Shown piece by piece: positions 5,114-20,095 of a stretch of DNA of 64,000 nt. The notes beneath the pieces are model-generated. The model was not told the DNA's origin. It worked only from the letters and a program-made list of their open reading frames with translations, and ran no database searches. Source of the DNA: Candidatus Poriferisodalis sp. (GTDB lineage Bacteria > Actinomycetota > Acidimicrobiia > Acidimicrobiales > Poriferisodalaceae). The stretch is taken from NCBI GenBank assembly GCA_965221195.1, contig OZ244864.1, positions 2,006,219-2,070,218 on the forward strand. Direction: 5' to 3'. Every line of letters starts with the position of its first letter. The first letter of the stretch is position 1. A program made the position numbers and the translations under genes.

Positions 5114-6472
5114 CTAAGGGGTTTCGGTGAACGACTGCGGATGTGGAGGTTCTTCCGATGCACTTCCAGCGGCTACCTCTACCTCAGCGCGACGTTCTAG
5201 GCGCGGCGCCGTGGGTGTCACGGAGCGAAGGTTTTGAAGTACTTCGCCGTAGAAGGTTTCCACAGCGTCAAGAACTGAATCAATGAAACCGGCCTTGCGA
5301 GCCGAGCGACGGCCCTGCCCCATCTCTGAGCGGCGAACCACGCGGAACCGGACAGGTTCATTGCGGGATTCGTCGAGTCCAGCTCGAGAATCCTCGATTA
5401 GTTGGTGCAAGGCCGCCACCGTTGGTGTCTTAGAACGATGCGTGTAGGCCTCGACGATCAGATCTTCCTCTGTGTCGCGCAATTGGCGGGTCAACCAGCT
5501 AACGCGAGCACGGCCGCCCCGGTCGCGTGGCGCATCGAACGTTGCGCTAGTCGTAACGAGTCGAGCCTTGAGATCGGCGGTCACGTTGATGTCCGTGATT
5601 GTGTCTGGTACTCGGAGCGTGCCCGCAAGCGTGCCTTCGTCGCACAATGAGTCAACAAAGGTACGGTTTCGCAACCGCGCGTCGAGACGGTGTGCCCGAG
5701 GTATGACTTCTTGGACATCGTGACCGATTTTGCTGCCGAGTTTCAATGCAGCGAACCTGAGCAGTTGGTCCCATCGTTGGCAGATTTCGATCACAGCGCT
5801 GTCTCGTCGGTCGAGCGTTCCTTCGCGGGCGCCGTCGCGCACGTCCGTCCAGTTCGAGCCCATATCAGAGAATTCCAAGGCGCCTGACTTGGGGTGCTCG
5901 AGATATCGGATAAGCTCGTGGAGTATCCACGCTTGCTCGGGGTCGTCAACACCGCGATGCGCATGTTCCTTCACGGCTTCGGAAAGGATCATCGCCCATG
6001 ACAGGTGGTACACCTTGACCTTGGAATTGGACGGCACCCGTAGCTGGTCGGTCGGGTGAACATCGGGTGACGGTGCGATCTCATTAGAGATAGTGATGAC
6101 GCAGTCGTAGCCGCACTCACGGGCCAGTTTCACATACTCGCTGATTTGCTCGGCATCAAGCGCGGAGTTGCCTGTCTTGGCTTCGATGAGTGCTTCGAAT
6201 TTGCTCTTGCTGCCGAACGTGACTCGCACGAGACCGTCTGGACGCACGGTATGACCGTCGGCCATCTTGTGCGTGACTTCCGTGTAGACCTCTACTGACG
6301 CGCGCGCACTGTTCGTCGCTCCCAAGGGTGTGAGGAGCGCCTTTGAGAACGGGCGCACAATCGAGAGCACTGCCAACAGCGCAGAGACTGCTCTGGTCTC
6401 CGCCTCCTGAGGTCCTGTGCTGCCGGCTATTGGTATCAGTCGCGCCGTCTCTGCGTTGAACTCCACTGTCAC
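5114..6472 (-). CDS. hypothetical protein with N-terminal PD-(D/E)xK nuclease-like core
   Basis: 452 aa with E65...RPD79GLV...E97-A-K99 (VRPDGLVRVTFGSKSKFEALIEAKTG). The long C-terminal region has no motif I recognise. It lies in the defence island. Confidence 0.7.
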   Translation of the reverse strand: MTVEFNAETARLIPIAGSTGPQEAETRAVSALLAVLSIVRPFSKALLTPLGATNSARASVEVYTEVTHKMADGHTVRPDGLVRVTFGSKSKFEALIEAKTGNSALDAEQISEYVKLARECGYDCVITISNEIAPSPDVHPTDQLRVPSNSKVKVYHLSWAMILSEAVKEHAHRGVDDPEQAWILHELIRYLEHPKSGALEFSDMGSNWTDVRDGAREGTLDRRDSAVIEICQRWDQLLRFAALKLGSKIGHDVQEVIPRAHRLDARLRNRTFVDSLCDEGTLAGTLRVPDTITDINVTADLKARLVTTSATFDAPRDRGGRARVSWLTRQLRDTEEDLIVEAYTHRSKTPTVAALHQLIEDSRAGLDESRNEPVRFRVVRRSEMGQGRRSARKAGFIDSVLDAVETFYGEVLQNLRSVTPTAPRLERRAEVEVAAGSASEEPPHPQSFTETP

Positions 6473-6605: not shown

Positions 6606-7037
6606 CTACGCGTCAATCGCTTGGTACTTGATACCCACGCCAGCCATTGCGGCCCGGATTCTCGGTCCGTCGTCGCCCGACCAAACGCACAAGGGAGCTC
6701 TTAGGTGTTCCGCGGCGGCTACAGCTTCAGCTCCGAGCGTGGACAGCCGGTAGGTCATGGCTAGCTCTGCCATGCGAAACGCCAGCAAACGCATAGGCAG
6801 GATGTAGCAGTCGTCGCCGAGCATTACGAGACGTCGAGCGAGCTCTCGTCTGGCTGCTGTCGGCCATGAGCCCGTCAACGCTCCGCCAGACGCTGAGACG
6901 AGACTCCGACTGAGACGCACCAGGTAGAGATTCGTGGTCGCCACTGAGTGTTCTGCTAACAGCCGATCAAGACTTGGCCTGATGTCGTCTGCAAGAAGGT
7001 CGCGTAACAAGTGGTCGTCTAGAACGACGTGGCTCAC
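6606..7037 (-). CDS. PIN-like toxin candidate (VapC-like, divergent)
   Basis: 143 aa with N-terminal VVLDDHLL. A 4-nt overlap joins it to an upstream AbrB-type antitoxin gene. Confidence 0.55.
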   Translation of the reverse strand: MSHVVLDDHLLRDLLADDIRPSLDRLLAEHSVATTNLYLVRLSRSLVSASGGALTGSWPTAARRELARRLVMLGDDCYILPMRLLAFRMAELAMTYRLSTLGAEAVAAAEHLRAPLCVWSGDDGPRIRAAMAGVGIKYQAIDA

Positions 7038-7273
7038 GTAGTTGCAAGTTCCGTGTCGTCGCCCAAAGACTCAACGAACGCAGCGTGGGCTTCGCGGCTC
7101 AAAATGTCGCCAAGAAACCGCCGCCCTTGTCCGACGGGCAAGGTGAGTACCCCGAAGCCCAGATCAACAACGTCAACTGGTCCTCCGTCGTCAAGTTCCC
7201 AACGGTGACGTGCAGCGGCCGGCAACGACATCTGCCCAGACGATGAGACCAAATACTCCCTCACTGCACTCAT
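7034..7273 (-). CDS. AbrB/MazE/SpoVT-type antitoxin
   Basis: The start at the ATG at 7273 gives 79 aa. GQMSLPAAARHRWELDDGGPVDVVDLGFGVLTLP is a swapped-hairpin AbrB-like motif. It overlaps the downstream PIN-like gene by 4 nt. Confidence 0.65.
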   Translation of the reverse strand: MSAVREYLVSSSGQMSLPAAARHRWELDDGGPVDVVDLGFGVLTLPVGQGRRFLGDILSREAHAAFVESLGDDTELATT

Positions 7274-7355
7274 GCGCACGACTCTACTTGGTAAGTGAGC
7301 CCAATCCACCAAGTTTTGATGTGTCTAGTTGCCGCTGAGCGGCGATACTGAGACA

Positions 7356-8423: not shown

Positions 8424-8707
8424 GCTGGCCTCAAACTGCTCGGTCGTGCGGGCATAGCGTGCAGTATCAGGTAGGTGTTGGTGTCAGGGTCGTGTCGAAA
8501 CCCTACTTCCAGCAGACTGCCGTCGTGCTGTGCGCCGGTGCTCATGATGAATCCGTCGTCTTGGAAGTCAGTGGTCATCGCGTTTCGGTATGCGTGCAAG
8601 ATGTCCCCGTCGCTGATGCCGAGGCGAGAATGCGGATGCCGGGTGCGTGATTGACCATCGGCGGACGAACCGACGCAGTCGGATTCAAAGATTCCAATAC
8701 TTTTCAT
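8420..8707 (-). CDS. small toxin-like protein (family not identified)
   Basis: 95 aa with HPHSRLGISDGDILHAYRNA ... GSLLEVGF ... YLILHAMPAR. The pattern and two-gene overlap architecture fit a type II TA module. Confidence 0.5.
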   Translation of the reverse strand: MKSIGIFESDCVGSSADGQSRTRHPHSRLGISDGDILHAYRNAMTTDFQDDGFIMSTGAQHDGSLLEVGFRHDPDTNTYLILHAMPARPSSLRPA

Positions 8708-8731
8708 GGTATTTCGTTGGCGCGTCGTGGG

Positions 8732-8836
8732 CTATTGGCTGTCGCGCATGCGTCGGACAAGCACTTCGGCGGGTTCATGCGTCTTGAGTACTCCGCGGGC
8801 GGAGCGATATGCGCTGAGGCACCGCGTTGTCGCCAC
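8732..8836 (-). other. 34-codon mini-ORF, copy B, 24 nt upstream of the toxin-like gene
   Basis: GTG-initiated VATTRCLSAYRSARGVLKTHEPAEVLVRRMRDSQ. It has the same length as copy A and matches it in sequence. Confidence 0.35.
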
Positions 8837-8924
8837 ATCGTCAGGTGCTGTTGGCGTAGACACGAAATCAATTCGTTTGCGTGTGGCAGATCGGTGTAAG
8901 GATGCGCAGTCGAAAGGGGAGTCC

Positions 8925-10241
8925 GTGACGGCTGAGGTTGTGATCCTGAATCGTGAAGCCGTAGCTGTCGCGGCAGACAGCGCGGCCACCGTCGTCGGCC
9001 GAGGCCCCAAGATCTACAACACTGCCAACAAGCTGTTCCTCCTCTCGTCGGTGGCACCAGTGGCGGTGATGATCTACGGCGCAGGCACATTTGGCCCTGT
9101 CCCTTGGGAGACGGTTGTGAAGGAGTACCGCAGGACACGCGGTGCCCGATCCTTCGGGACGGTCGCTGAGTACGCCGCTGACTTCATCGACCATCTGGCA
9201 GACCTGACTCAGCATGTGACCCGGGCCGAGCAACTTGAGCGTGTCTTGATGACTGCGCGCTGGGAGCTTGAGGCGATCCGCGGCGTTGTGGAAGATGAAG
9301 TCACTGATGCAATGGCCGATGGCACTGCACTGGACGACTCCGCGGTCATTGGGCGCATCCTTGCCGAAATCGAGGCAGCTATCGAGCGACTCACCGGCAG
9401 CACATTCATTGAAGGACTTGGCGCCACGGTCGTTGAGCGCGAGATCGGCAGCGCTGTGCCTGATTGGCCCGGCCTTGTCGCTGCTGCCTTCTGGGGTATG
9501 CCTGTTGACGCTCGCGTTGTTCGTCGTGCAAGGGTTCTCGTGTGCACATCGTTGCGGTTGGCGGATCGGTCGCCTAGAAGCGGTGGAGTGGTCGTGACGG
9601 GGTTCGGTGAATCTGAGATATTTCCCGCGCTTTCGCACTATCTCCTTGACGGCGTGGTAGCGAACCGAGTACGAGCACGGTCGGACGGCGGCCTCAGTAT
9701 CGGTGGCGACCGGTCGGCAAGTATCTGCCCGTTTGCGCAAGAGGACATGGTTGCCGCGTTCATGGACGGCGTGCATCCCGGCTTCCGATTGGCTCTTGAT
9801 GAGTTCGTGGACAGCACCGTAGCCATGCTCATCGAGCGCCTCTGCGGCATCGTCAAAGACTCGCTTACCGCAGCGGCCTACGGGCAACTGCAAGACGAGA
9901 TGCGTGAGGCTCGGGACTGGGTCACCACGCACTTCGAGAGCGAGCTGGCGGAATATCTTGAGCGGAACAATTCAGGGCCGATCATGTCGGTTGTGGAGGT
10001 GCTGCCCAAAGAGGAGCTGGCAGCGATGGCCGAGGCGCTCGTGAACCTGACCTCGTTCAAGCGAAGAGTCACACCTGGGGTTGAGACTGTGGGCGGCCCC
10101 ATCGATGTCGCTGTGATATCAAAGGGCGACGGTCTCGTGTGGATCAAGCGCAAGCACTATTTCGACCCTGATCTGAATTATCGGTACTTTGAACGCGACC
10201 GCCGACTCAGCTATTCTCGCAGACCAGAAGGAGCATCATGA
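8925..10241 (+). CDS. proteasome-beta/HslV-like Ntn-hydrolase domain protein with large helical insertions
   Basis: GTG at 8925 with AAGGGGAG a few nt upstream, and codon 2 is Thr. TAEVVILNREAVAVAADSAATVVGRGPKIYNTANKLFLL..IYGAGTF parallels HslV [44 protein letters not shown] (recalled from memory). Later motifs are VVVTGFGESE and VGGPIDVAVISKGDGLVWI. Confidence 0.7.
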   Translation: MTAEVVILNREAVAVAADSAATVVGRGPKIYNTANKLFLLSSVAPVAVMIYGAGTFGPVPWETVVKEYRRTRGARSFGTVAEYAADFIDHLADLTQHVTRAEQLERVLMTARWELEAIRGVVEDEVTDAMADGTALDDSAVIGRILAEIEAAIERLTGSTFIEGLGATVVEREIGSAVPDWPGLVAAAFWGMPVDARVVRRARVLVCTSLRLADRSPRSGGVVVTGFGESEIFPALSHYLLDGVVANRVRARSDGGLSIGGDRSASICPFAQEDMVAAFMDGVHPGFRLALDEFVDSTVAMLIERLCGIVKDSLTAAAYGQLQDEMREARDWVTTHFESELAEYLERNNSGPIMSVVEVLPKEELAAMAEALVNLTSFKRRVTPGVETVGGPIDVAVISKGDGLVWIKRKHYFDPDLNYRYFERDRRLSYSRRPEGAS

Positions 10242-10417
10242 CACAGTCACAATATGACGACCTCCGAGAGCGGCTTGCCCGGTCGCGGGCGATCCGGCTC
10301 CTGCCAGGGCCGACAAGACCAGAGGATCCGCGTGAGTTCGGACGCCGGGCCGCCCAGAAAGTCTTCGACCGGTACGTGGAGTCACGGGAACAGCGAGAGG
10401 CCACCGAGAAAAGCTGA
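10238..10417 (+). CDS. 59-aa charged protein translationally coupled to the Ntn-hydrolase gene
   Basis: Its ATG overlaps the upstream TGA (ATGA at 10238-10241). MTQSQYDDLRERLARSRAIRLLPGPTRPEDPREFGRRAAQKVFDRYVESREQREATEKS. It is one codon below the 60-aa cutoff of the ORF track. Confidence 0.4.
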   Translation: MTQSQYDDLRERLARSRAIRLLPGPTRPEDPREFGRRAAQKVFDRYVESREQREATEKS

Positions 10418-10629: not shown

Positions 10630-12193
10630 ATGGTGACGGGTGAACTGAAACGGCAGATCGATGCGGTGTGGAACGACTTCTGGTCGGGCGGCATCTCGAA
10701 CCCACTGGAGGTGATGGAGCAGCTCACCTATCTGCTGTTTGTCAAAGCGCTCGACGAGCAGCAGACCTTGGCTCACAATAAGGCGAACCGCACGGGCCAG
10801 CCGATCCCTGCCGACGACGACATCTTCCCCGACGGCGGGCAGTTCCGGCCCGAGGGCCGTGCTGATGCCCGTCCGTACAGCGATCTGCGCTGGTCACAGT
10901 TCAAGCACCTTCCGGCTGCTGAAATGTTTGATGTCGTTGAGAACTACGTGTTCCCCTTCTTGCAGGCACGGGCCGCCAAGAGCACCCACGCGCAGCACAT
11001 GCGCGACGCCCGGCTGACGATCCCCACGGCGACGCTCCTGCAGAAGGCTGTCGATGGGCTAGATGCAGTCGAGATGGCCGACCGCGACACCAAAGGCGAC
11101 GTGTATGAGTACATGCTCTCCAAGATCGCCACCGCCGGCCAAAACGGGCAGTTCCGCACACCGCGGCACATCATTGAACTGATGGTTGAGATGACCGCCC
11201 CCCAGCCAGACGACACCATCTGCGACCCCGCCAGCGGCACCTGCGGGTTCTTGGTGGGCGCCGGGGAGTACATCCGGCGTGAGCATCCGAGCGTGCTCAC
11301 CGATCCCAAGGGGTCGATGCATTTTCACAACAAGATGTTCTCGGGCTACGACTTTGACAACACGATGCTGCGCATCGGATCGATGAATATGCAACTCCAC
11401 GGCGTGCAGAACCCGCGTATCAGCTACCGAGATTCGTTGGCCGAAAGCCACGCCGATGACGCTGAGGCCTACAGTCTGATTCTCGCCAACCCGCCGTTCG
11501 CTGGCTCGCTCGACTATGAGGGCACCGCCAAAGACCTCTTGGCGGTTGCTCGCACCAAAAAGACCGAACTGTTGTTTATTGCGCTGTTTTTGCGGCTGCT
11601 CAAGCCCGGCGGACGAGCGGCGGTGATCGTGCCCGACGGGGTGCTGTTTGGTTCAACTAAGGCGCACAAAGAACTGCGCCGTATCTTGGTAGAAGACCAC
11701 AAGCTCGACGGCATCGTTTCGTTGCCAGGTGGTGTATTTAAGCCGTACGCCGGGGTTTCCACAGCGATCTTGCTGTTTACCAAAACTAACTCTGGTGGCA
11801 CCGACCTCGTCTGGTTTTACGACCTTCAGGCTGATGGTTACAGCCTTGACGACAAGCGCACTCCCCTGCTGGACGACGACAAGCTGGGCACAAAGGTTGA
11901 GTTGATTGCGGGGGGGGGGGGGGGGGCATTCCAAGAACAACCTGCCCGATGCACTCGCTCGTTGGAAGCAGCGTGACGGATCTGAGTTAGAGCGCTCTCG
12001 CACCGATCAATCGTTCTGCGTTCCCAAGGTTGACATAGCCGCCAACGATTACGACCTCAGCATCAACCGCTACAAGGAGATCGTCTACGACGAAATCGAG
12101 TACGAACCGCCGACTGTGATCCTCGACGAGCTTGCCGATCTCGAACGGGAGATCCTGGCAGGTATCGACGATCTAAAGGCAACCTTAGGATGA
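10630..12193 (+). CDS. hsdM: type I R-M methyltransferase subunit HsdM, reading frame broken at a G17 tract
   Basis: HsdM N-terminal domain (IDAVWNDFWSGGISNPLEVMEQLTYLLFVKAL), FRTPRHI and the NPPFAG catalytic motif. The frame from 10630 stops at 11976. The conserved HsdM C-terminus (NNLPDALARWKQRD...NDYDLSINRYKE) continues in the next frame to 12193. Removing one G restores a single ORF. Confidence 0.85.
11910..11926. repeat. homopolymer G17 inside hsdM
   Basis: Counted directly: the g at 11910 plus 16 further g up to 11926. Confidence 0.95.
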
Positions 12194-13155
12194 GGGGACA
12201 ATTGAGACTCGTCATCGATCGAGCGTTCGATGAACTCTGGCAGCCACTTACGAATCACGATGACTGCCCTGCGAGTGTTTTTGGTGAGGTTTTTACTGGC
12301 TTGCGCCCATTCCTTCGTGAACCTGAACCGGAGTTCGTAAAAGAAGAAGACAACGGCCCAATTCGCAACAAAGCCACCAACTTCGACGATCAAGCCTTAT
12401 GTGCAATGAGTGACCCGAAGACCGCCGAAATTCTGCTGAAAAACTTATCAAAGGAGAGTTTCATATCGGAAAATGACACCCGCCGAGCCGCCAGTAGCAC
12501 TTGGGAGATTCTTGTCGATATCGCAACCGAAGATCTTGCGAAAGAATACGTGAGCCTTCTTAAGAATTTTATTGAACGTTATAACTTGCGCTACTATGTT
12601 GGCGAGAATGCCCAACTCTGGATTTCTTTTTCTGGACTTGCTACATCGCTGTTCGGCCAACTCCGCTTTATAGCGCAGGGTCATCCTCATCTTCTACAAC
12701 AGCTTAACGAATTCGAACAGACATTAGCTGAATGCCTGAATCAACCTTCAGAGAATCGAATCAAGACCTCGATCCAAAAACAAACGAACCTGCTGGAAGC
12801 CTTCGGTTCACAAAACGGCCTCATTTCTGGCAACACGCTCGGGGCTATGCTCGATCAGGCAAATAACTGGCCGCACACCAGTCTTTGCGATGCCGCGAAA
12901 AATTTATACAAGTTTGCGTCTGATTATCCAGGTATTCGTCACGGAGGTAACTTTGACTCATCTAATCGCGCACTGGACCTGCGTGATCTCAGCAGCGTCA
13001 CGCTTTCACTCGTCGGACTCGCCGCGTACATGGCTGACGGTTTTGAGGAGCAAGTTGCCTCCGCCATACAGGGTGACCTTCTTCCAACCGTCACTCTTAG
13101 CAGTGTTGCAACGCCTTCGCCTCCAACATGTAGAGACAAGACGAACCAACTATGA
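12190..13155 (+). CDS. hypothetical protein embedded between hsdM and hsdS (low GC)
   Basis: 321-aa ORF. ATGA overlaps occur at both ends (12190-12193 with the hsdM stop, 13152-13155 with the hsdS start). It is visibly AT-richer than its neighbours, and I recognise no family. Confidence 0.7.
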   Translation: MRGQLRLVIDRAFDELWQPLTNHDDCPASVFGEVFTGLRPFLREPEPEFVKEEDNGPIRNKATNFDDQALCAMSDPKTAEILLKNLSKESFISENDTRRAASSTWEILVDIATEDLAKEYVSLLKNFIERYNLRYYVGENAQLWISFSGLATSLFGQLRFIAQGHPHLLQQLNEFEQTLAECLNQPSENRIKTSIQKQTNLLEAFGSQNGLISGNTLGAMLDQANNWPHTSLCDAAKNLYKFASDYPGIRHGGNFDSSNRALDLRDLSSVTLSLVGLAAYMADGFEEQVASAIQGDLLPTVTLSSVATPSPPTCRDKTNQL

Positions 13156-14339
13156 CAGGATTTTCTGGGTTCGAAGAAATGACAGATGACGTGAAGTGGC
13201 CCATAGTGCCCGTTCGAGATGTAGCCACCGCAGAAAGGAATGCAGTTTCAGCGGATCAGGTCCACGGAGATGAGTTGTACGTTGGATTGGAGAATGTGAC
13301 TAGTGACGGAGTCTTCGAAAACGTGGTAGTTGCAAGCAAGGCAAACTTGAAGAGTAACAAATTCGCGTTTACGGAGGATCATGTGCTCTACGGCAAGCTA
13401 CGCCCGTACCTCGCCAAAATAGCCGCACCTGACTTCGCTGGCATCTGCAGCACCGACATACTCCCTATTAGGCCAAGTACCAGACTTGACCGCCGCTACC
13501 TGCTGTATTTTCTGCGAACACCGATGATGGTTGCCCGTGCGGCGAGCAATGCCGTGGGGATAAATCTTCCCCGACTGAACCCGAAGACATTGGAGTCATT
13601 CGAGATTCCGTTGCCGCCGATTGGGGAGCAGAGGCGGATTGCGGCGATATTGGATGCGGCTGATGCTCTCCGAGCGAAGCGTCGTCAAACTCTCGCCAAG
13701 CTCGACGATCTGACGCAATCAATCTTCCACGAACAGTTCATTCGTGCGAACGGGTGGCCGGGTTCGTTGGACACGACACTTGGTGAGATAGCGGAGATTG
13801 TATCAGGCTCGACACCCAAAACCGGTGTCGAGCGTTACTGGAACGGTGATGTCTGGTGGGCGACACCGAAGGACCTAAGTGAAATCACGAGTCCGTATAT
13901 CGATGCTACTGAGCGCACGCTGTCTGAGGCTGGCCTCCAGAGCTGCTCTGCCTCCGTCTTGCCTGCCCATTCCGTCCTCTTGAGTTCGCGGGCCCCAATC
14001 GGATACGTAGCTATCAATACTACCCCCATGGCCACCAACCAAGGATTCAAGAATTTCGTCCTTGATTCGAAGTGTGTCGATCCTAGGTTTCTCTATTCTT
14101 GGTTGCGTTTCCACCGTCCACAGCTGCAGGCAATGGGAAGTGGTGCGACCTTCAAAGAGATATCCAAGAGAACCGTCTCTTCGGTACCGATTCGCTTGCC
14201 GACAATCGAGAAACAACGTGAATTTGGCGAGGTGTTTGACAAGGCCGAGGCGCTGCGAATCACAGCGGAACATGAATTGACGATGCATGACACGTTGTTT
14301 GCTTCACTACAGCAGCGGGCGTTTCGGGGGGAACTGTGA
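13152..14339 (+). CDS. hsdS: type I R-M specificity subunit HsdS
   Basis: 395 aa with two target-recognition halves separated by a conserved helix (LPPIGEQRRIAAILDAADALRAKRRQTLAKLDDLTQSIF). The C-terminal helix is LPTIEKQREFGEVFDKAEALR. Confidence 0.85.
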   Translation: MTGFSGFEEMTDDVKWPIVPVRDVATAERNAVSADQVHGDELYVGLENVTSDGVFENVVVASKANLKSNKFAFTEDHVLYGKLRPYLAKIAAPDFAGICSTDILPIRPSTRLDRRYLLYFLRTPMMVARAASNAVGINLPRLNPKTLESFEIPLPPIGEQRRIAAILDAADALRAKRRQTLAKLDDLTQSIFHEQFIRANGWPGSLDTTLGEIAEIVSGSTPKTGVERYWNGDVWWATPKDLSEITSPYIDATERTLSEAGLQSCSASVLPAHSVLLSSRAPIGYVAINTTPMATNQGFKNFVLDSKCVDPRFLYSWLRFHRPQLQAMGSGATFKEISKRTVSSVPIRLPTIEKQREFGEVFDKAEALRITAEHELTMHDTLFASLQQRAFRGEL

Positions 14340-17300
14340 GCGGGTCGCAGTTCTCGTTTCTCGAAGCTGAGTTTCAGCCGCAGTTCGGTGCAGCGGCTCG
14401 GGCTGAGGGCTACACCCTGTCCGACCCCGGCGCAGCGGTGATCTATGCACGCAAATGCCTGGAGTCAGCCGTCACATGGATGTACCAGCACGACCCGTCG
14501 CTGCCTGCGCCGTACGATGACACGCTCGGTGCACGGCTGAACAACCCAGCTTTCCAAGCACTCGAAGATGGTCGCATTTTTGAGGCGGCACGCAAGGTTC
14601 AGCGAGCCGGCAACCGTGCAGCACACGAATCGAAAGCGCCGTCGAAGCTCGAAGCGGTCGAGGTCGTCTCGGCGCTGTTCGGGTTCTGTCTGTGGTTCGC
14701 ATTCACCTACGGGCGCGCATCGAAGCCTGATCCGTCGCAGCGGTTCAACCCGCACCTGCTGCTCGACGCGGGTGAAGCCGAGCGGGCCTCGCTGCGCCAG
14801 CGCCAAGAACTCGAGCAACGTCTTGAGCGCGAGTCTGCCGAGCTTGCCACTGCTCAGCAGCGACTGGCCGAATCGACACGCAGCGCTGAAGAACTACACA
14901 CCGAGCTGGCGAATCTGCGGGCAGAGGTGGCCGCTGCCAAGAAGCAGGCAGCCGAGACCGTCCCGCCCGACGCGTTCGACTGGTCTGAAGCCGAAACTCG
15001 CAAGTTCAAGATCGATGCGCTGCTGGCCGAAGCCGGTTGGACCGATCTCGCCGAAGGCCGCGACACCGAATACGAAGTGCATGGCATGCCGTCGGAGTCG
15101 GGCGTTGGCTACGTCGACTATGTGCTGTGGGGTGCCGATGGCAAACCGCTCGCCGTGATAGAGGCCAAGAAAGCCTTAGCCGATCCGAAGATCGGCACCC
15201 AACAAGCCAAGCTGTATGCCGATTGTTTAGAAACCGAGACCGGCCAACGGCCAGTCATCTACGCCAGCAACGGTTATGAGCATTGGCTGTGGGACGACAC
15301 CCAGTATCCACCTCGCCAAGTGCAAGGGTTCTGCACCCGCGACGAACTGGCTTTGCTCATTGCGCGGCGTACGGCTCGCATGTCGCTGGCGTCGCTGGAC
15401 GTAGACGGGCAGATCGTTGACCGTCACTATCAGCGGCGAGCGATCAGCGCCATCGCCGAGCACTTCGAGCACGCCAACCAGCGCAAGGCACTGCTGGTGA
15501 TGGCCACCGGCGCAGGCAAAACCCGCACGGTGATTGCTTTGACGGATCTCTTGATGCGAGCCGGATGGGTGAAGCGGGTGCTGTTTTTGGCGGATCGCAC
15601 AGCGCTCGTACACCAAGCCGCACACGCCTTCAAGACGCACCTACCCAATGCGGCACCGGTGAACTTGGTGACCGAACCCAACGTAGACGGACGAGTGTAT
15701 GTATCTACCTATCAGACGATGGTCGGCAAGATCGACGAGTATCGGCGCAACGGCATTCGCCGGTTCGGTGTGGGGTATTTCGACTTGGTGGTTATCGATG
15801 AAGCGCACCGGTCGGTGTATCGCAAATACCGGGGCATCTTCGACTATTTCGACTCGTTGCTGGTGGGCCTCACTGCGACCCCCAAAGACGAGGTCGACAA
15901 GAACACCTACGACTTGTTTGATCTTGAGACTGGCGTGCCCACCGACGCGTATTCACTTGAAGATGCCATTGGTGACGACTATTTGGTGCCGCCTCGGGGC
16001 GTGTCGGTTGAACTCAAGTTCGTGCGTGAAGGCATCAGATACGACGAACTCTCCGATGACGAGAAAGACACTTGGGACGAACTCGACTGGGGCGAAGATG
16101 ATGAGGGCGATCCCCTAGCGCCGCCAGAGGCCGTTGATGCCGCCGAACTCAACAAATGGTTGTTCAACCGCGACACCGTCGACCGGGTGCTCGAATACCT
16201 GATGGTCGAGGGCATTAAGGTAGCTGGTGGCGACCGGCTCGCCAAGACGATCATTTTCGCCAAAAATCAAAAGCACGCCGAGTTCATAAAAGAACGCTTC
16301 GATGCCAACTATCCAGCCCTCGATGCTGGCAATTTCGCGCGGGTTATCACCCATCAGACGAGCTACGCCCAGAGCCTGATCGACGATTTTTCCAACAAAA
16401 CCAGGTCGCCGCATATCGCTATCAGCGTTGACATGCTCGACACCGGCATAGATGTGCCCGAGGTCGCCAACTTGGTGTTTTTCAAGCCGGTGCATTCCAA
16501 GACCAAGTTCTGGCAAATGTTGGGCCGCGGCACCCGACTGTGCGCCGACTTGTTCGGCCCCGGTGAGCGCAAGACTCACTTCAACGTGCTTGACTTCTGC
16601 GGGAACCTCGAGCATTTCAACCAGCCACTGGCGCCAGCAAAGACATCGAGCGGACGTTCGCTCAGCGAGATTTTGTTCTCGACCCGTCTGGAATTGTTGA
16701 GCACACTCGACGCGCTGGCGGGCTTCGGCGATGAGCGAGTGGAGGTTGCGGCGACGCTGCAACAGGCCGTGGCGTCGATGAACCCCGACAACTTCTTAGT
16801 GCGCCCGCACTTGGAGCTAGTTGAGCGGTTCAGTGCGCCAGAAGCGTGGGAAACAGTATCGCTGGCGGACTTGGCCGAACTCAACGAGCGGGTGGCCAGC
16901 CTTGCTGACCAGCTCAACGCCGACCACGAAGACGCCAAATGCTTCGACGTGGTGATGCTGAATGCGCAGTTGGGTCTGCTGCGAAGCGAGCCCAAGCCGT
17001 TTGAGCGACAGCGGCAGCGAGTCATGCGCGTGGCATCCGCCTTGGCCGACTTGGGCACATCCATTCCCGTGGTGGCTCAGCAACAAGAACTGATCGCAGA
17101 CATACAGACCGACGAGTGGTGGACCGATGTCACCTATCCGATGCTCGAAGATGCCCGCAAGCGATTGCGGAACCTCACTCAGCTCATCGTTCGTGCCGAC
17201 AAAAAGGTTCTCTACAGCGACTTCGCCGATGAGTTCGGCGGTGCCAGTGTGATTGACCTGCCCGGCGGTGGCAAGCCGGGCGGCAGTCACGATGTTGCCG

Positions 17301-17785
17301 ATGACAGCAGTGATGAGTTCGCACAGTTCCGCCGCAAGGCGCAGCATTTCTTGAAGGAGAACCTTGCCGAAGGTGTCGTAGCCAAAGTTCGCAGCGGCGA
17401 GCCGCTCACCCAGCACGACATGGATGAACTCCAGCGAGTGCTGGTGGCCGCCGGCATCGGCGACGACTCAACGTTCGCCAAGGCATCACGGCGGGCTGGC
17501 AGCTTTGGGTTGTTTGTCCGCTCGCTGGTGGGGCTCGACCGAGCCGCTGCCAAGCGCGCCTTTGCCAAGTTCCTCAACGACAAGCGCTACAGCGTCAACC
17601 AGATCCGCTTCGTGGAGCTGGTGATCGATTACCTCACCGAACATGGCACCGTAGAGCAACACCGCGTCTACGAATCGCCGTTCATCAGCGTCGCCCCACA
17701 AGGACCCGACGCCATCTTCGTATCCGACGACCTCGAAGAGTTCTTCAAAATCGTCGACCAATTCCACAAAACCGCCGCTGTTTAG
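14336..17785 (+). CDS. hsdR: type I restriction enzyme R subunit HsdR with N-terminal DUF4145/HEPN-like domain and coiled coil
   Basis: 1149 aa. The N-terminus has AARKVQRAGNRAAHE (DUF4145-like), followed by a coiled coil. The nuclease core is GYVDYVLWGADGKPLAVIEAKK. Helicase motifs are MATGAGKT, VIDEAH and GLTATP. GTGA overlap with hsdS. Confidence 0.9.
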   Translation: MSGSQFSFLEAEFQPQFGAAARAEGYTLSDPGAAVIYARKCLESAVTWMYQHDPSLPAPYDDTLGARLNNPAFQALEDGRIFEAARKVQRAGNRAAHESKAPSKLEAVEVVSALFGFCLWFAFTYGRASKPDPSQRFNPHLLLDAGEAERASLRQRQELEQRLERESAELATAQQRLAESTRSAEELHTELANLRAEVAAAKKQAAETVPPDAFDWSEAETRKFKIDALLAEAGWTDLAEGRDTEYEVHGMPSESGVGYVDYVLWGADGKPLAVIEAKKALADPKIGTQQAKLYADCLETETGQRPVIYASNGYEHWLWDDTQYPPRQVQGFCTRDELALLIARRTARMSLASLDVDGQIVDRHYQRRAISAIAEHFEHANQRKALLVMATGAGKTRTVIALTDLLMRAGWVKRVLFLADRTALVHQAAHAFKTHLPNAAPVNLVTEPNVDGRVYVSTYQTMVGKIDEYRRNGIRRFGVGYFDLVVIDEAHRSVYRKYRGIFDYFDSLLVGLTATPKDEVDKNTYDLFDLETGVPTDAYSLEDAIGDDYLVPPRGVSVELKFVREGIRYDELSDDEKDTWDELDWGEDDEGDPLAPPEAVDAAELNKWLFNRDTVDRVLEYLMVEGIKVAGGDRLAKTIIFAKNQKHAEFIKERFDANYPALDAGNFARVITHQTSYAQSLIDDFSNKTRSPHIAISVDMLDTGIDVPEVANLVFFKPVHSKTKFWQMLGRGTRLCADLFGPGERKTHFNVLDFCGNLEHFNQPLAPAKTSSGRSLSEILFSTRLELLSTLDALAGFGDERVEVAATLQQAVASMNPDNFLVRPHLELVERFSAPEAWETVSLADLAELNERVASLADQLNADHEDAKCFDVVMLNAQLGLLRSEPKPFERQRQRVMRVASALADLGTSIPVVAQQQELIADIQTDEWWTDVTYPMLEDARKRLRNLTQLIVRADKKVLYSDFADEFGGASVIDLPGGGKPGGSHDVADDSSDEFAQFRRKAQHFLKENLAEGVVAKVRSGEPLTQHDMDELQRVLVAAGIGDDSTFAKASRRAGSFGLFVRSLVGLDRAAAKRAFAKFLNDKRYSVNQIRFVELVIDYLTEHGTVEQHRVYESPFISVAPQGPDAIFVSDDLEEFFKIVDQFHKTAAV

Positions 17786-18267: not shown

Positions 18268-19014
18268 ATGGCCGATAAGTCAGCCATCGAGTGGACCGAA
18301 GCGACATGGAACCCGACCACGGGCTGCGATCGCACCTCGCCGGGCTGTGACAACTGCTATGCGCTCGCTCTGTCGAAGCGGTTGAAGGCGATGGGTTCGC
18401 CCAAGTACCAGAACGACGGCGACCTAGCGACGAGCGGGCCGGGCTTCAGGCTGACCCTCCATCCTTCGTCGCTTGACGTGCCGAAGCGATGGAATGCTCC
18501 CCGCCTTGTCTTTGTGAACTCAATGAGCGACCTTTTTCACGAGGACGTGCCTGTCGAGTTCATCGCGCAGGTCTTCGCCGTGATCCGCCAGACACCTCAG
18601 CACACCTACCAAGTGCTCACCAAGCGGGCGCAGCGCTTGAGCCGAATCGCCGGCGATCTGGACTGGCCGTCGAATCTGTGGATGGGCGTGAGCGTGGAGA
18701 CTCGCCGATACGCGTTCCGCGTCAATCATTTGCGCAAAGTGCCCGCTGCTGTCAGATTCGTCAGTGCCGAGCCGTTGCTCGGCCCGCTGGGCGACCTGAA
18801 TCTCGACGGTATCCACTGGGTGATTGCGGGCGGCGAGTCCGGCATCAACGCACGGCCCATGGAACTTGACTGGGCCACAGAACTCCGCGACACCTGCACC
18901 TCCGCCGGCGTGTCGTTCTTCTTCAAACAGTGGGGCGGTAGGACACCCAAGGCCGGTGGGCGCGAACTCGAAGGTGAGTACTGGGACGAGGTGCCGCTCA
19001 GGTTGGCGAGCTAG
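18268..19014 (+). CDS. DUF5131 (phage Gp37/Gp68-like) three-Cys-motif protein
   Basis: MADKSAIEWTEATWNPTTGCDRTSPGCDNCYA is the characteristic N-terminus of this family (recalled). 248 aa. Confidence 0.8.
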   Translation: MADKSAIEWTEATWNPTTGCDRTSPGCDNCYALALSKRLKAMGSPKYQNDGDLATSGPGFRLTLHPSSLDVPKRWNAPRLVFVNSMSDLFHEDVPVEFIAQVFAVIRQTPQHTYQVLTKRAQRLSRIAGDLDWPSNLWMGVSVETRRYAFRVNHLRKVPAAVRFVSAEPLLGPLGDLNLDGIHWVIAGGESGINARPMELDWATELRDTCTSAGVSFFFKQWGGRTPKAGGRELEGEYWDEVPLRLAS

Positions 19015-19018
19015 GCCT

Positions 19019-20095
19019 GTGGCGGTTCCAACCGGAATTCTCTGGGAGCGCGATTCCCACACCGCTGCGAAGCACACACTGCTGCGCCGCTACTTGGAAG
19101 CTTGGTTTCCGATCATGGCCAAGCAGTTCATACACGAGGGAATCACCTTCCTTGACGGCTTTGCCGGGCCCGGCGAGTACACGAACGACCACGAGAGTTC
19201 GCCCACGATCGCCATGAACCAAGCGATGCGAGATGGGGTGACGCGATGGGGCACCCGAACACGGCTCGTGTTCATCGAGGCCCACGCCAAGCGCGCCGAG
19301 CATCTGCGAGAGCATCTCGATGCACGCTTTCCGCCGTCGATCAGGCCGCCCGGTCTGGTTGCCCAAGTGCATCCTGGCGAGTGCGCTGCTGTCTATGAAC
19401 GGGCCATCGCTGACATCGACGGTTGGACGGGTCCAGTGTTTGCGAACCTCGACGGCTGGGGTGCCGACACCGACTACGAGATCGTGCAGCGCATCGCGGC
19501 CCACCCGTCTTCGGAGGTGCCTGTCACCTTTCAGGATCAGTTCTTCGTCCGTTTCGCCGACGGCGACCAAGAAGCGGGCGAGCGTGTGTTCGGACATGCC
19601 GACTGGCGAAGTGTCGGCGGGTTGCCCACCGCTGAGAAAAAGCCGTTCCTGCTCAACCAGTACCGAAGCGGCCTCCATGCCGCGGGCTTCGACTATGTGC
19701 TGATCTTCGAGATGATCGATGAAGGTGGACACTCCCTGCATCAGTTCTTCGGTACCAAGAGCGATGTCGCCGTTGGCAAGTTCAAGGACGGGCTGTGGGA
19801 AGTCGACGGCATATCTGGCCAGAGCTTCCGAGATCCACGAGACCCCGATCAGATGGCTTTCGACTTTCTCGAGCCGGACTTCACAAGATTGGACGATCAG
19901 ATATTGAAGCTGCTGGACGACGGCGACCGCAGCATGGCCGATCTCTGCCGCCATTCCCTGCTTGAGACGATCTACAAGGAGACTCACGTCAAGCCGAGAG
20001 TTGACGCGCTTGTAACCAAAGGGAAGCTAGAGCAAGTCAGCGCAAGTCAGTCATACGAAAAACGCGTCTTTCGTCGAGCGCAGCAGTTGTTCTGA
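19019..20095 (+). CDS. TcmP-like partner protein of the three-Cys-motif protein
   Basis: In-frame GTG at 19019, 5 nt after the upstream stop. ILWERDSHTAAKHTLLRRYLEAWFPIM...FLDGFAGPGEY matches my memory of the three-Cys-motif partner family. The track ORF start at 18824 overlaps the upstream gene and is unlikely. Confidence 0.65.
   Translation: MAVPTGILWERDSHTAAKHTLLRRYLEAWFPIMAKQFIHEGITFLDGFAGPGEYTNDHESSPTIAMNQAMRDGVTRWGTRTRLVFIEAHAKRAEHLREHLDARFPPSIRPPGLVAQVHPGECAAVYERAIADIDGWTGPVFANLDGWGADTDYEIVQRIAAHPSSEVPVTFQDQFFVRFADGDQEAGERVFGHADWRSVGGLPTAEKKPFLLNQYRSGLHAAGFDYVLIFEMIDEGGHSLHQFFGTKSDVAVGKFKDGLWEVDGISGQSFRDPRDPDQMAFDFLEPDFTRLDDQILKLLDDGDRSMADLCRHSLLETIYKETHVKPRVDALVTKGKLEQVSASQSYEKRVFRRAQQLF

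Follow-up and report, generated by a model that had tools for sequence, protein, structure and literature searches.

What does the gene pair at positions 8925 to 10417 of this stretch of DNA encode, and what could such a pair be for? The stretch is 64,000 nucleotides of Candidatus Poriferisodalis sp. (contig OZ244864.1, positions 2,006,219 to 2,070,218), here called the window, and positions are counted from its first letter. The large gene encodes 438 amino acids and is followed by an open reading frame (ORF) of 59 amino acids. The original prediction, made from the letters alone, was an N-terminal nucleophile (Ntn) hydrolase of the proteasome-beta/HslV kind with a translationally coupled small ORF, inside a defence island. 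We argue that the enzyme and its partner hold up better than the island does. By its structural model and its profile alignments the large protein is a proteasome-beta-fold Ntn hydrolase with a conserved Thr/Asp/Lys triad. The small ORF is a real, conserved, co-inherited and translationally coupled partner. As for what the pair does, we hypothesize a function in defence or in protein ligation.

The argument depends on where the large gene begins. Residues are numbered with Met1 counted, which gives Thr2, Asp18, Lys29 and Lys36; when the threonine is counted as 1 the last three become D17, K28 and K35. At its longest, the ORF of this frame runs from ATG 8706 (511 amino acids), the start that the public annotation uses (P0001). 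We reject it because homologues open at a conserved MT and because the Shine-Dalgarno-like GAAAGGGGAG stands before GTG 8925. The N-terminus MTAE(V/I) is found in 29 close homologues (40-80% identity) and 126 distant ones (33-47%), rare longer annotations apart, and nearly all of them are 420-445 amino acids long. In the few database entries that are longer, '...V-TAEV' shows the same GTG start read through. Judged from the sequence, GTG 8925 is the true start and the annotated ATG 8706 is unsupported, as the original prediction had it when it took the GTG with its ribosome-binding site and Thr as codon 2. The same kind of upstream extension is seen elsewhere. The GTG has become an internal valine in the window entry (8706-8924; 511 versus 438 amino acids), in P0086 and in P0142, and the conserved Met is internal in P0136 and in E. 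coli WP_231531568.1 (L094 7786-9189). An annotation of this sort would hide the N-terminal Thr from its readers. Removal of Met before Thr is the established specificity of methionine aminopeptidase, and from this we would expect loss of Met1 to expose Thr2 at the N-terminus. There is no propeptide; the Thr comes directly after the start Met. Promoter and terminator scans around the gene pair found none.

The fold does not come out of ordinary sequence searches. The 438-residue protein has no match in Pfam (E up to 10, PF00227 included), NCBIfam, PADLOC or the PDB sequences, and searching the PDB sequences with a profile brought up no proteasome either (E up to 10). An AlphaFold2 model was built on the alignment of the 126 distant homologues. 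Its predicted local distance difference test score (pLDDT) is 94.3 and its predicted template modelling score (pTM) is 0.90. It supersedes an earlier model on the 29 close homologues, which rendered the core poorly (pLDDT 72; the strands at both termini below 50). When the model is searched against the PDB with Foldseek, the top 50 matches are all 20S proteasome subunits or Anbu, which is what the proposal of a proteasome fold had called for. The best of them is 8u7u_K (E 1.6e-4, probability 1.0, template modelling score about 0.5 normalised to the target). Among the viral models of BFVD the top match is a phage 'proteasome beta type-2 subunit' (TMt 0.71).

Profile alignment is a second line of reasoning. 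At full length, hhalign aligns only the terminal hairpin TVGGPIDVAVISKGDGLVWI, with ASGGMIDVAVITRKDGYVQL of Thermoplasma PsmB (E 2.7e-5), a local match that covers beta-subunit residues 168-187. The late motif that had been likened to the last strands of 20S beta subunits is thus correctly placed: VGGPIDVAVISKGDGLVWI aligns with SGGMIDVAVITRKDGYVQL of the Thermoplasma subunit in that same match. Full-length alignments with single HslV or PsmB sequences, or with a low-diversity PsmB profile, gave short local matches only. An end-to-end alignment with beta subunits was obtained only when both insertions were cut out. The core left by removing residues 97-213 and 285-359 aligns with a Thermoplasmata beta-subunit profile over 176-186 columns at 26% identity (Prob 88-89%, E 2.9e-6 local and 2.4e-7 global).

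The core alignment pairs Thr2 with Thr1, Asp18 with Glu17 and Lys36 (in NKLF) with Lys33 (in KKLF). Across the 126 distant homologues (33-47% identity) Thr2, Asp18 and S19 never vary, and at least 90% of the sequences have Lys29 and Lys36. A pattern of D17, K28 and K35 had been proposed by comparison with the N-terminus of E. coli HslV. The HslV sequence used was correct and the pattern is borne out, with K36 (Met = 1) as the residue that pairs with Lys33. G52, also conserved in at least 90%, lies in the S4 segment equivalent to the Gly47 oxyanion site, where hhalign has a gap. One motif was misread. VVVTGFGESE had been taken for the GSGG loop and aligns with core strand S5 instead. Opposite the GSGS loop the alignment has I-x-P-F-A-Q, and opposite the Arg-Asp-Ser segment it has R-R-V-S and four inserted residues. 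The secondary proteasome residues Ser129, Asp166 and Ser169 have no conserved counterparts, with Val389 at the Ser169 position. Nearby, Q272 and D394 are invariant and E387 and T388 nearly so; Q272, E387 and T388 may substitute for the missing supporting residues.

One can imagine a scenario where the protein is a catalytically dead scaffold, or where the start is mis-called after all and the Thr is internal. The public start at ATG 8706, the absence of a PF00227 match and the loss of the three secondary residues all lean that way. However, a dead or internal Thr does not explain why 126 distant homologues all keep Thr2 and Asp18 and nearly all keep Lys36. Almost all homologues start with MT, the longer annotations are GTG codons read through, and a Shine-Dalgarno sequence precedes the GTG. 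We therefore regard this scenario as very improbable indeed. The large protein is presumably catalytically active, and since Ser129, Asp166 and Ser169 are not conserved its activity could differ from classical proteolysis.

The extra sequence amounts to about 190 amino acids, of which about 117 follow H2 and about 75 lie between H3 and H4. The original prediction of big helical insertions stands in that two are present in the model, but its figure of about 250 residues was too high. In the model the core helices are H1 (61-72), H2 (80-93), H3 (273-281) and H4 (362-382). Insertion 1 has helices at 100-131, 138-157, 167-177, 181-188 and 196-210 and is poorly conserved in sequence among homologues. 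Insertion 2 has helices at 285-313 and 316-359. In the last part of the core D394, V395 and G403 are invariant. A structure search with the helical insertions alone, taken from the confident part of the earlier model, gave no match that reached E 0.001. In the view of Fuchs et al. (PMC8665760), a protein with insertions at these two sites should be unable to form rings and double rings. If we follow their argument, the large protein probably forms no self-compartmentalising degradation chamber, because the insertions occupy the ring-forming surfaces.

It is worth considering how this protein compares with the known proteasome-fold enzymes. The closest structural matches are the 20S beta subunits (Thermoplasma acidophilum PsmB, PDB 1PMA/3C91) and Anbu. 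The core aligns with the beta subunit end to end, the terminal hairpin GGxIDVAVIxxxDG is 55-60% identical, and the N-terminal Thr, the acidic residue 17 and the Lys33 equivalent are all in place. Unlike a 20S beta subunit it has the extra residues in two insertions, no propeptide and no PF00227 match; it lacks the secondary residues, and neither an alpha subunit gene nor an AAA+ partner gene lies nearby. Ring assembly is doubtful for such a protein. HslV shares the N-terminal MT...D17...K28...K33 pattern, is bacterial and has no propeptide beyond Met. However, HslV is 176 amino acids long with a very short pore loop, and the large protein has 438 and no adjacent hslU. Membership in HslV is rejected, since hhalign covers only the first 24 residues (E 0.12) and no AAA+ unfoldase gene neighbours the family.

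Connectase, the MtrA ligase of methanogens (PDB 6ZVZ), is another matter. It is a proteasome fold outside the ring architecture. It is monomeric, recognises one partner protein by its sequence through helical insertions, and cuts MtrA before Pro, at KD|PGA with Pro at P1'. According to PMC8665760 H1/H2 are missing from connectase, and two extra helices are inserted between its S3 and S4. Our model keeps H1/H2 and has no S3/S4 insertion, and the family spans many phyla whereas connectase is found in methanogens only, where its substrate gene is not adjacent. Membership in connectase is rejected on these grounds. Even so, connectase is the best functional analogy for how the large protein might work, and by that analogy the insertions could confer specificity as connectase's helical lid does.

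The original prediction noted that the 59-residue ORF is coupled to the large gene through an overlapping ATGA. This arrangement belongs to a conserved partnership: a same-strand ORF of 40-100 amino acids starts between -30 and +60 nt of the large-gene stop in 84 of 84 testable loci, and 27 of these 84 use the 4-nt overlap. As a control, 37% of 621 other long ORFs in the same loci have such a small ORF downstream. A jackhmmer profile seeded with the ANME-1 partner was used to search 11,726 six-frame ORFs of at most 130 amino acids. It found 52 small ORFs, every one of them directly downstream of a large gene, with 0 off-target matches. A recognisable partner family is thus present in 51 of 91 loci, and the single extra match is a tandem second copy in L008. 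That locus is from Aldehydirespiratoraceae and has its two tandem partner copies (11311-11708) 3' of the large gene. Homologues of the window partner stand directly downstream of the large gene in L001, L003, L007, L008 (both copies) and L009.

The two genes have also travelled together. Pairwise identities of the large and the small proteins correlate (Spearman 0.24), and none of 500 permutations reached this value. An ANME-1 archaeon (L038 9260-10748) and a Nitrospiraceae bacterium (L013 10001-11477) share the large protein at 67% and the small protein at 60% identity. This indicates a recent interdomain transfer of the pair. Fusions of the small to the large protein were searched for and none was found. 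The small protein has no match in Pfam, NCBIfam or the PDB sequences, and ten partner proteins gave none in Pfam and PHROG. The small gene is annotated or called in L001, L003, L006, L095 and L096, and also in Providencia and Porphyromonas phages, a streptococcal satellite and an E. faecium plasmid. Annotations miss it in Stenotrophomonas phage BUCT708 and in E. coli 120899; in the latter a 49-residue ORF lies 24 nt downstream of the large gene. Independent of any function, then, a start codon is corrected here, and probably those of several homologues too, and a small gene is recognised that is unannotated in many genomes.

The sequence of the partner bears on what the enzyme might do with it. 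Members of the family have a basic N-terminus and the motif [YF]-x-S-h-x-E-[FYW]-x-[KR]-x-[FY]-[FL]-P, with the Pro in 46/47. After a charged linker comes a second motif, [ED]-D-P-x-x-[LF]-G-x-x-L-A-x-E-x-L. The window partner and its Acidimicrobiia relatives are clearly related among themselves and keep only the second motif (EDPREFGRRAAQKVF). A connectase-like transpeptidase or ligase would cleave the partner, or some other protein, at a specific X-Pro bond without hydrolysis. The N-terminal fragment would be held on Thr1 as an ester or amide, and the enzyme would then pass it on to another protein or stay reversibly capped. The shared superfamily favours this, as does the fact that the monomeric connectase cuts KD|PGA before Pro. 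In the partner family an almost invariant Pro follows a hydrophobic pair ([FY][FL]P), a further Asp-Pro precedes [LF]G in about half of the members, and the size of the insertions argues for high specificity. However, the defining connectase architecture is absent, with H1/H2 kept and no S3/S4 insertion. An Asp-Pro at a helix start is a common capping motif, and it is found in about half of the partners. The window partner has no clear [FY][FL]P, and the clustering of neighbouring ORFs shows no acceptor protein conserved nearby. We consider a connectase-like ligase unlikely, though it is the main rival of the exclusion scenario set out below.

The large protein is not the first of its kind. 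The original prediction held that no known prokaryotic proteasome-fold family matches it in size and context, and this has to be withdrawn: it fits PMI-4 and matches phrog_5990. Fuchs, Alva and Lupas (Bioinformatics 2021, PMC8665760) catalogued 22 further proteasome-like families. In their description PMI-4 has no propeptide and nothing inserted between S3 and S4; its long insertions follow H1/H2 and separate H3 from H4. With 501 sequences at nr90 PMI-4 is larger than any other PMI group, and it ranges over Proteobacteria, Firmicutes, Actinobacteria, Bacteroidetes, PVC, Cyanobacteria, other bacteria, Euryarchaeota and phages (PMC8665760). The same paper places the PMI proteins in 'group II', on the WPH/Anbu side and not in the HslV/BPH group, and reports that genomic context and co-occurrence gave no functional pointer. 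Our protein resembles PMI-4 in its Thr1/Asp17/Lys33 triad, its missing propeptide, its insertion sites, its abundance and its taxonomic range. By architecture and distribution it probably belongs there. The PMI-4 representative HDY66466.1 was not among the ten most consensus-like cluster members (e.g. WP_089970569.1, WP_072284070.1). The match to phrog_5990 (PHROGs v4, 'unknown function') is full length, with residues 1-424 against profile positions 1-426 of 427 (E 6e-102). The window protein is therefore a further member of a catalogued, functionally orphan family. Searches of the literature for a PMI protein that has been characterised, or for a defence system built on the proteasome fold, led only to the 2021 catalogue. 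The small downstream gene and the mobile-element positions are additions to what PMC8665760 describes; the conserved partner and the mobile setting of the family appear to be unreported.

The family comprises 5,021 representative clusters at 50% identity from bacteria, archaea and phages. Its occurrence is sparse and patchy, with at least 430 loci among 185,579 species genomes. Bacterial loci come from Actinomycetota, Bacillota, Pseudomonadota, Bacteroidota, Planctomycetota, Cyanobacteria, Nitrospirota and Chloroflexota, and archaeal ones from ANME-1, Methanosarcinales and a Woesearchaeote. Thirteen phage or satellite records carry the family, and so do 10 plasmid records, including the E. faecium plasmid with the small ORF. 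In a Providencia lambdoid phage the pair lies between Q/dam and the holin. In seven streptococcal satellite phages the gene is at the end of the element, after terS, and in Stenotrophomonas phages it adjoins the lysis genes. Only 22 of 5,426 complete E. coli genomes have the family, and both loci inspected are prophages. The gene of the E. coli 120899 prophage (L093 7957-9413) lies between the Q antiterminator and dam/tRNA/lysis genes, in the opposite orientation. That of the E. coli Res13-Sevr-PER07-33 prophage (L094 7357-9189) is directly 3' of a repressor-like helix-turn-helix gene. The position directly after the prophage repressor is the site of rexAB in lambda. The family is patchy and horizontally mobile, and it favours accessory sites of prophages and satellites. 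It must be noted that two Bacillota loci, L004 and L096, share a gene order upstream of the cassette (DUF5351, YuiB, Peripla_BP_2, DUF212), which suggests vertical inheritance or a common insertion site in that lineage.

With so many copies in phages, one can ask whether the cassette serves the phage or satellite itself, through counter-defence, host takeover or interference with competitors, the chromosomal copies being remnants. That the family is a PHROG with 13 phage or satellite records, that Stenotrophomonas phages carry it beside the lysis genes and that satellites carry it after terS would fit. However, cellular genomes supply most of the roughly 5,000 clusters, and at many loci the nearest 8-10 kb are free of phage genes. 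The window island has R-M and toxin-antitoxin (TA)-like genes and no phage structural genes. The positions in the immunity region and among the Q-lysis morons are those typical of genes that a lysogen expresses for the protection of its host. A phage-serving function is in our view quite improbable.

We tentatively argue, at somewhat less than even odds, for a different scenario: the partner restrains a site-specific Thr protease, or is its primary substrate, and the cassette acts in conflict between host, phage and mobile elements through exclusion or abortive infection (Abi). In this scenario the two genes would form a self-contained cassette. Loss of Met1 would expose the Thr, which with Asp18 and Lys36 would make the classical Thr1/Asp17/Lys33 Ntn active site. 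The two insertions would cover the surfaces that proteasome subunits use for rings and double rings, and the large protein would work as a free or differently assembled sequence-specific protease, much as connectase does. The 59-residue protein, made from the same mRNA by translational coupling, would be the cognate partner. It would dock on the enzyme and keep it in check, or else serve as the first substrate. Infection by a phage or mobile element would lift the check, and the freed protease would then cut specific host or phage proteins, with exclusion or abortive infection as the result. A more novel form of the proposal casts the pair as a new kind of immune or exclusion module, shared by bacteria, archaea, prophages and phage satellites, in which the proteasome-fold Thr protease or transpeptidase is the effector and the coupled partner of about 60 amino acids is the switch, whether inhibitor, bait or substrate. 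This form is possible but rather doubtful.

The obvious comparison for the exclusion scenario is with type II TA systems of reverse gene order and with protease-based Abi systems. The likeness lies in two coupled genes with the small one second, in a mobile and patchy distribution, in the prophage immunity and moron regions and in the R-M neighbours. The small protein differs in matching no antitoxin family in the databases searched (Pfam, NCBIfam, PADLOC, PHROG). We know of no TA or Abi system that uses a proteasome-fold enzyme.

Several loci do have neighbours that suit a role in defence. L001 is beside HEPN_Swt1, DUF5343 and a type III R-M system, L006 beside a Gp49/HI1420 TA pair and a methylase, and L003 beside HNH and HipA genes. 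Fic/DUF4172 neighbours occur in five loci. The defence reading of the original prediction is plausible, but a strict tie to defence islands does not hold for the family. Housekeeping genes predominate among the two closest ORFs on either side of the gene in 77 loci; examples are ABC transporters, GNAT, PEP-utilising enzymes, ThiC and citrate synthase. This weighs against the exclusion scenario, and so do several other points. The excess of PADLOC models near the gene is modest (159 versus 92 at 6.5-10 kb), and this comparison counts models and is not a per-gene statistic. Neither protein matches PADLOC-DB v2 at E up to 10. The secondary proteasome residues are missing, as described above. The window partner is without [FY][FL]P, the motif that the family conserves best, and joins the wide partner profile only at E 0.02. 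Finally, the proposed binding of partner to enzyme is drawn from the linkage of the two genes. Confinement of the family to defence islands is rejected, given the mostly housekeeping neighbours across 77 loci. Clustering of 1,002 neighbouring ORFs turned up no third conserved gene: no cluster extends over more than 6 of 85 loci. The link to mobile elements is stronger than that to defence neighbours.

These neighbours raise one more alternative, a regulatory protease for housekeeping or stress with a small adaptor or chaperone, whose presence on mobile elements is incidental. The nearest genes in the 77 loci are mostly for metabolism and transport, the synteny in the two Bacillota genomes suggests vertical inheritance there, and Fuchs et al. 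(PMC8665760) saw no functional context. However, the distribution is sparse and patchy: 185,579 species genomes yielded at least 430 loci, and of 5,426 E. coli genomes 22 have the family. The two genes have crossed between domains as a pair, the pair recurs at accessory sites of prophages, on satellites and on plasmids, and no housekeeping neighbour is conserved. We would not expect the housekeeping explanation to be the right one.

The exclusion scenario would matter beyond this locus. The proteasome fold is among the most thoroughly studied protease architectures, and this is a branch of it with about 5,000 clusters in both prokaryotic domains and their viruses, so far without an assigned function. 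The partner gene and the mobile lifestyle turn an orphan family into a testable two-component system, and the E. coli prophage copies are convenient material for genetics. If the pair is a defence or exclusion effector, it would be a new enzymatic class in prokaryotic immunity and the first proteasome-fold defence system. It would also give a first function to any of the 22 orphan families of proteasome homologues. If the enzyme is instead a specific protease or connectase-like ligase, the proteasome fold would have been repurposed outside the degradation chamber, with a possible tool for protein engineering.

Table. Features of the gene pair and its surroundings, in window positions.
Feature	Position	Strand	Description and basis
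Large gene	8925..10241	+	438-aa predicted proteasome-beta-fold N-terminal-Thr hydrolase, PMI-type, phrog_5990; model, hhalign and PHROG match
Shine-Dalgarno-like sequence of large gene	8912..8921	+	purine-rich GAAAGGGGAG, 3 nt 5' of GTG start; read from sequence
Codon Thr2	8928..8930	+	predicted N-terminal nucleophile once Met is removed; invariant in 126/126 homologues, aligned with Thr1 of Thermoplasma beta subunit
Core part 1, residues 1-96	8925..9212	+	strands S1-S4 (Asp18, Lys36), helices H1 and H2; model and hhalign
Insertion 1, residues ~97-213	9213..9563	+	five helices after H2, at the proteasome 'pore-loop' site; model
Core part 2, residues 214-284	9564..9776	+	S5-S8 and H3; invariant G226, P234, Q272, G282
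Insertion 2, residues ~285-359	9777..10001	+	long helical hairpin between H3 and H4; model
Core part 3, residues 360-438	10002..10241	+	H4, terminal beta hairpin ETVGGPIDVAVISKGDGLVWIKRKHYF, C-terminal helix, stop; hhalign
Small partner gene	10238..10417	+	59 aa; ATG overlaps large-gene TGA (ATGA); highly charged, basic and acidic
Shine-Dalgarno sequence of small ORF	10226..10233	+	AGAAGGAG, 4 nt upstream of its ATG, within the end of the large gene
Conserved partner motif	10322..10366	+	EDPREFGRRAAQKVF, fits [ED]-D-P-x-x-[LF]-G-x-x-L-A; alignment of relatives and jackhmmer column counts
452-aa ORF	5114-6472	-	no family match
92-aa MazE/AbrB-like ORF	7034-7312	-	weak match, E 8e-4
hsdM	10630-11976	+	directly downstream of the pair; type I R-M operon
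321-aa ORF between hsdM and hsdS	12190-13155	+	no Pfam/NCBIfam match; G+C 0.49 versus ~0.60
hsdR	14336-17785	+	1149 aa; N-terminal DUF4145 before HSDR_N/ResIII/helicase/EcoEI_R_C modules
DUF5131 protein	18268-19014	+	Pfam E 5e-100; directly after the type I R-M operon
TcmP, 'three-Cys-motif partner protein'	18824-20095	+	NCBIfam E 6e-41; overlaps the DUF5131 gene

The surroundings of the pair in the window were described as TA modules on one side and a type I R-M operon on the other. The second half is right: the pair is followed by hsdM, the 321-residue gene, hsdS and hsdR. The 'TA modules' come down to one weak MazE/AbrB-like match among short upstream ORFs without a family. This ORF, a neighbour of the 452-residue ORF, overlaps by 4 nt a 143-residue ORF with no family assigned, in a VapBC-like layout (6606-7312, minus strand). 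Metabolic genes lie on both sides of the stretch from 4.7 to 20.1 kb. Because of these flanks and of the R-M and TcmP genes between them, we take 4.7-20.1 kb to be a variable island with a restriction system. DUF5131 and TcmP are a pair of the mobile-element type and stretch the variable island to about 20.1 kb. The 321-residue ORF inside the R-M operon may be an inserted accessory or Abi-like gene.

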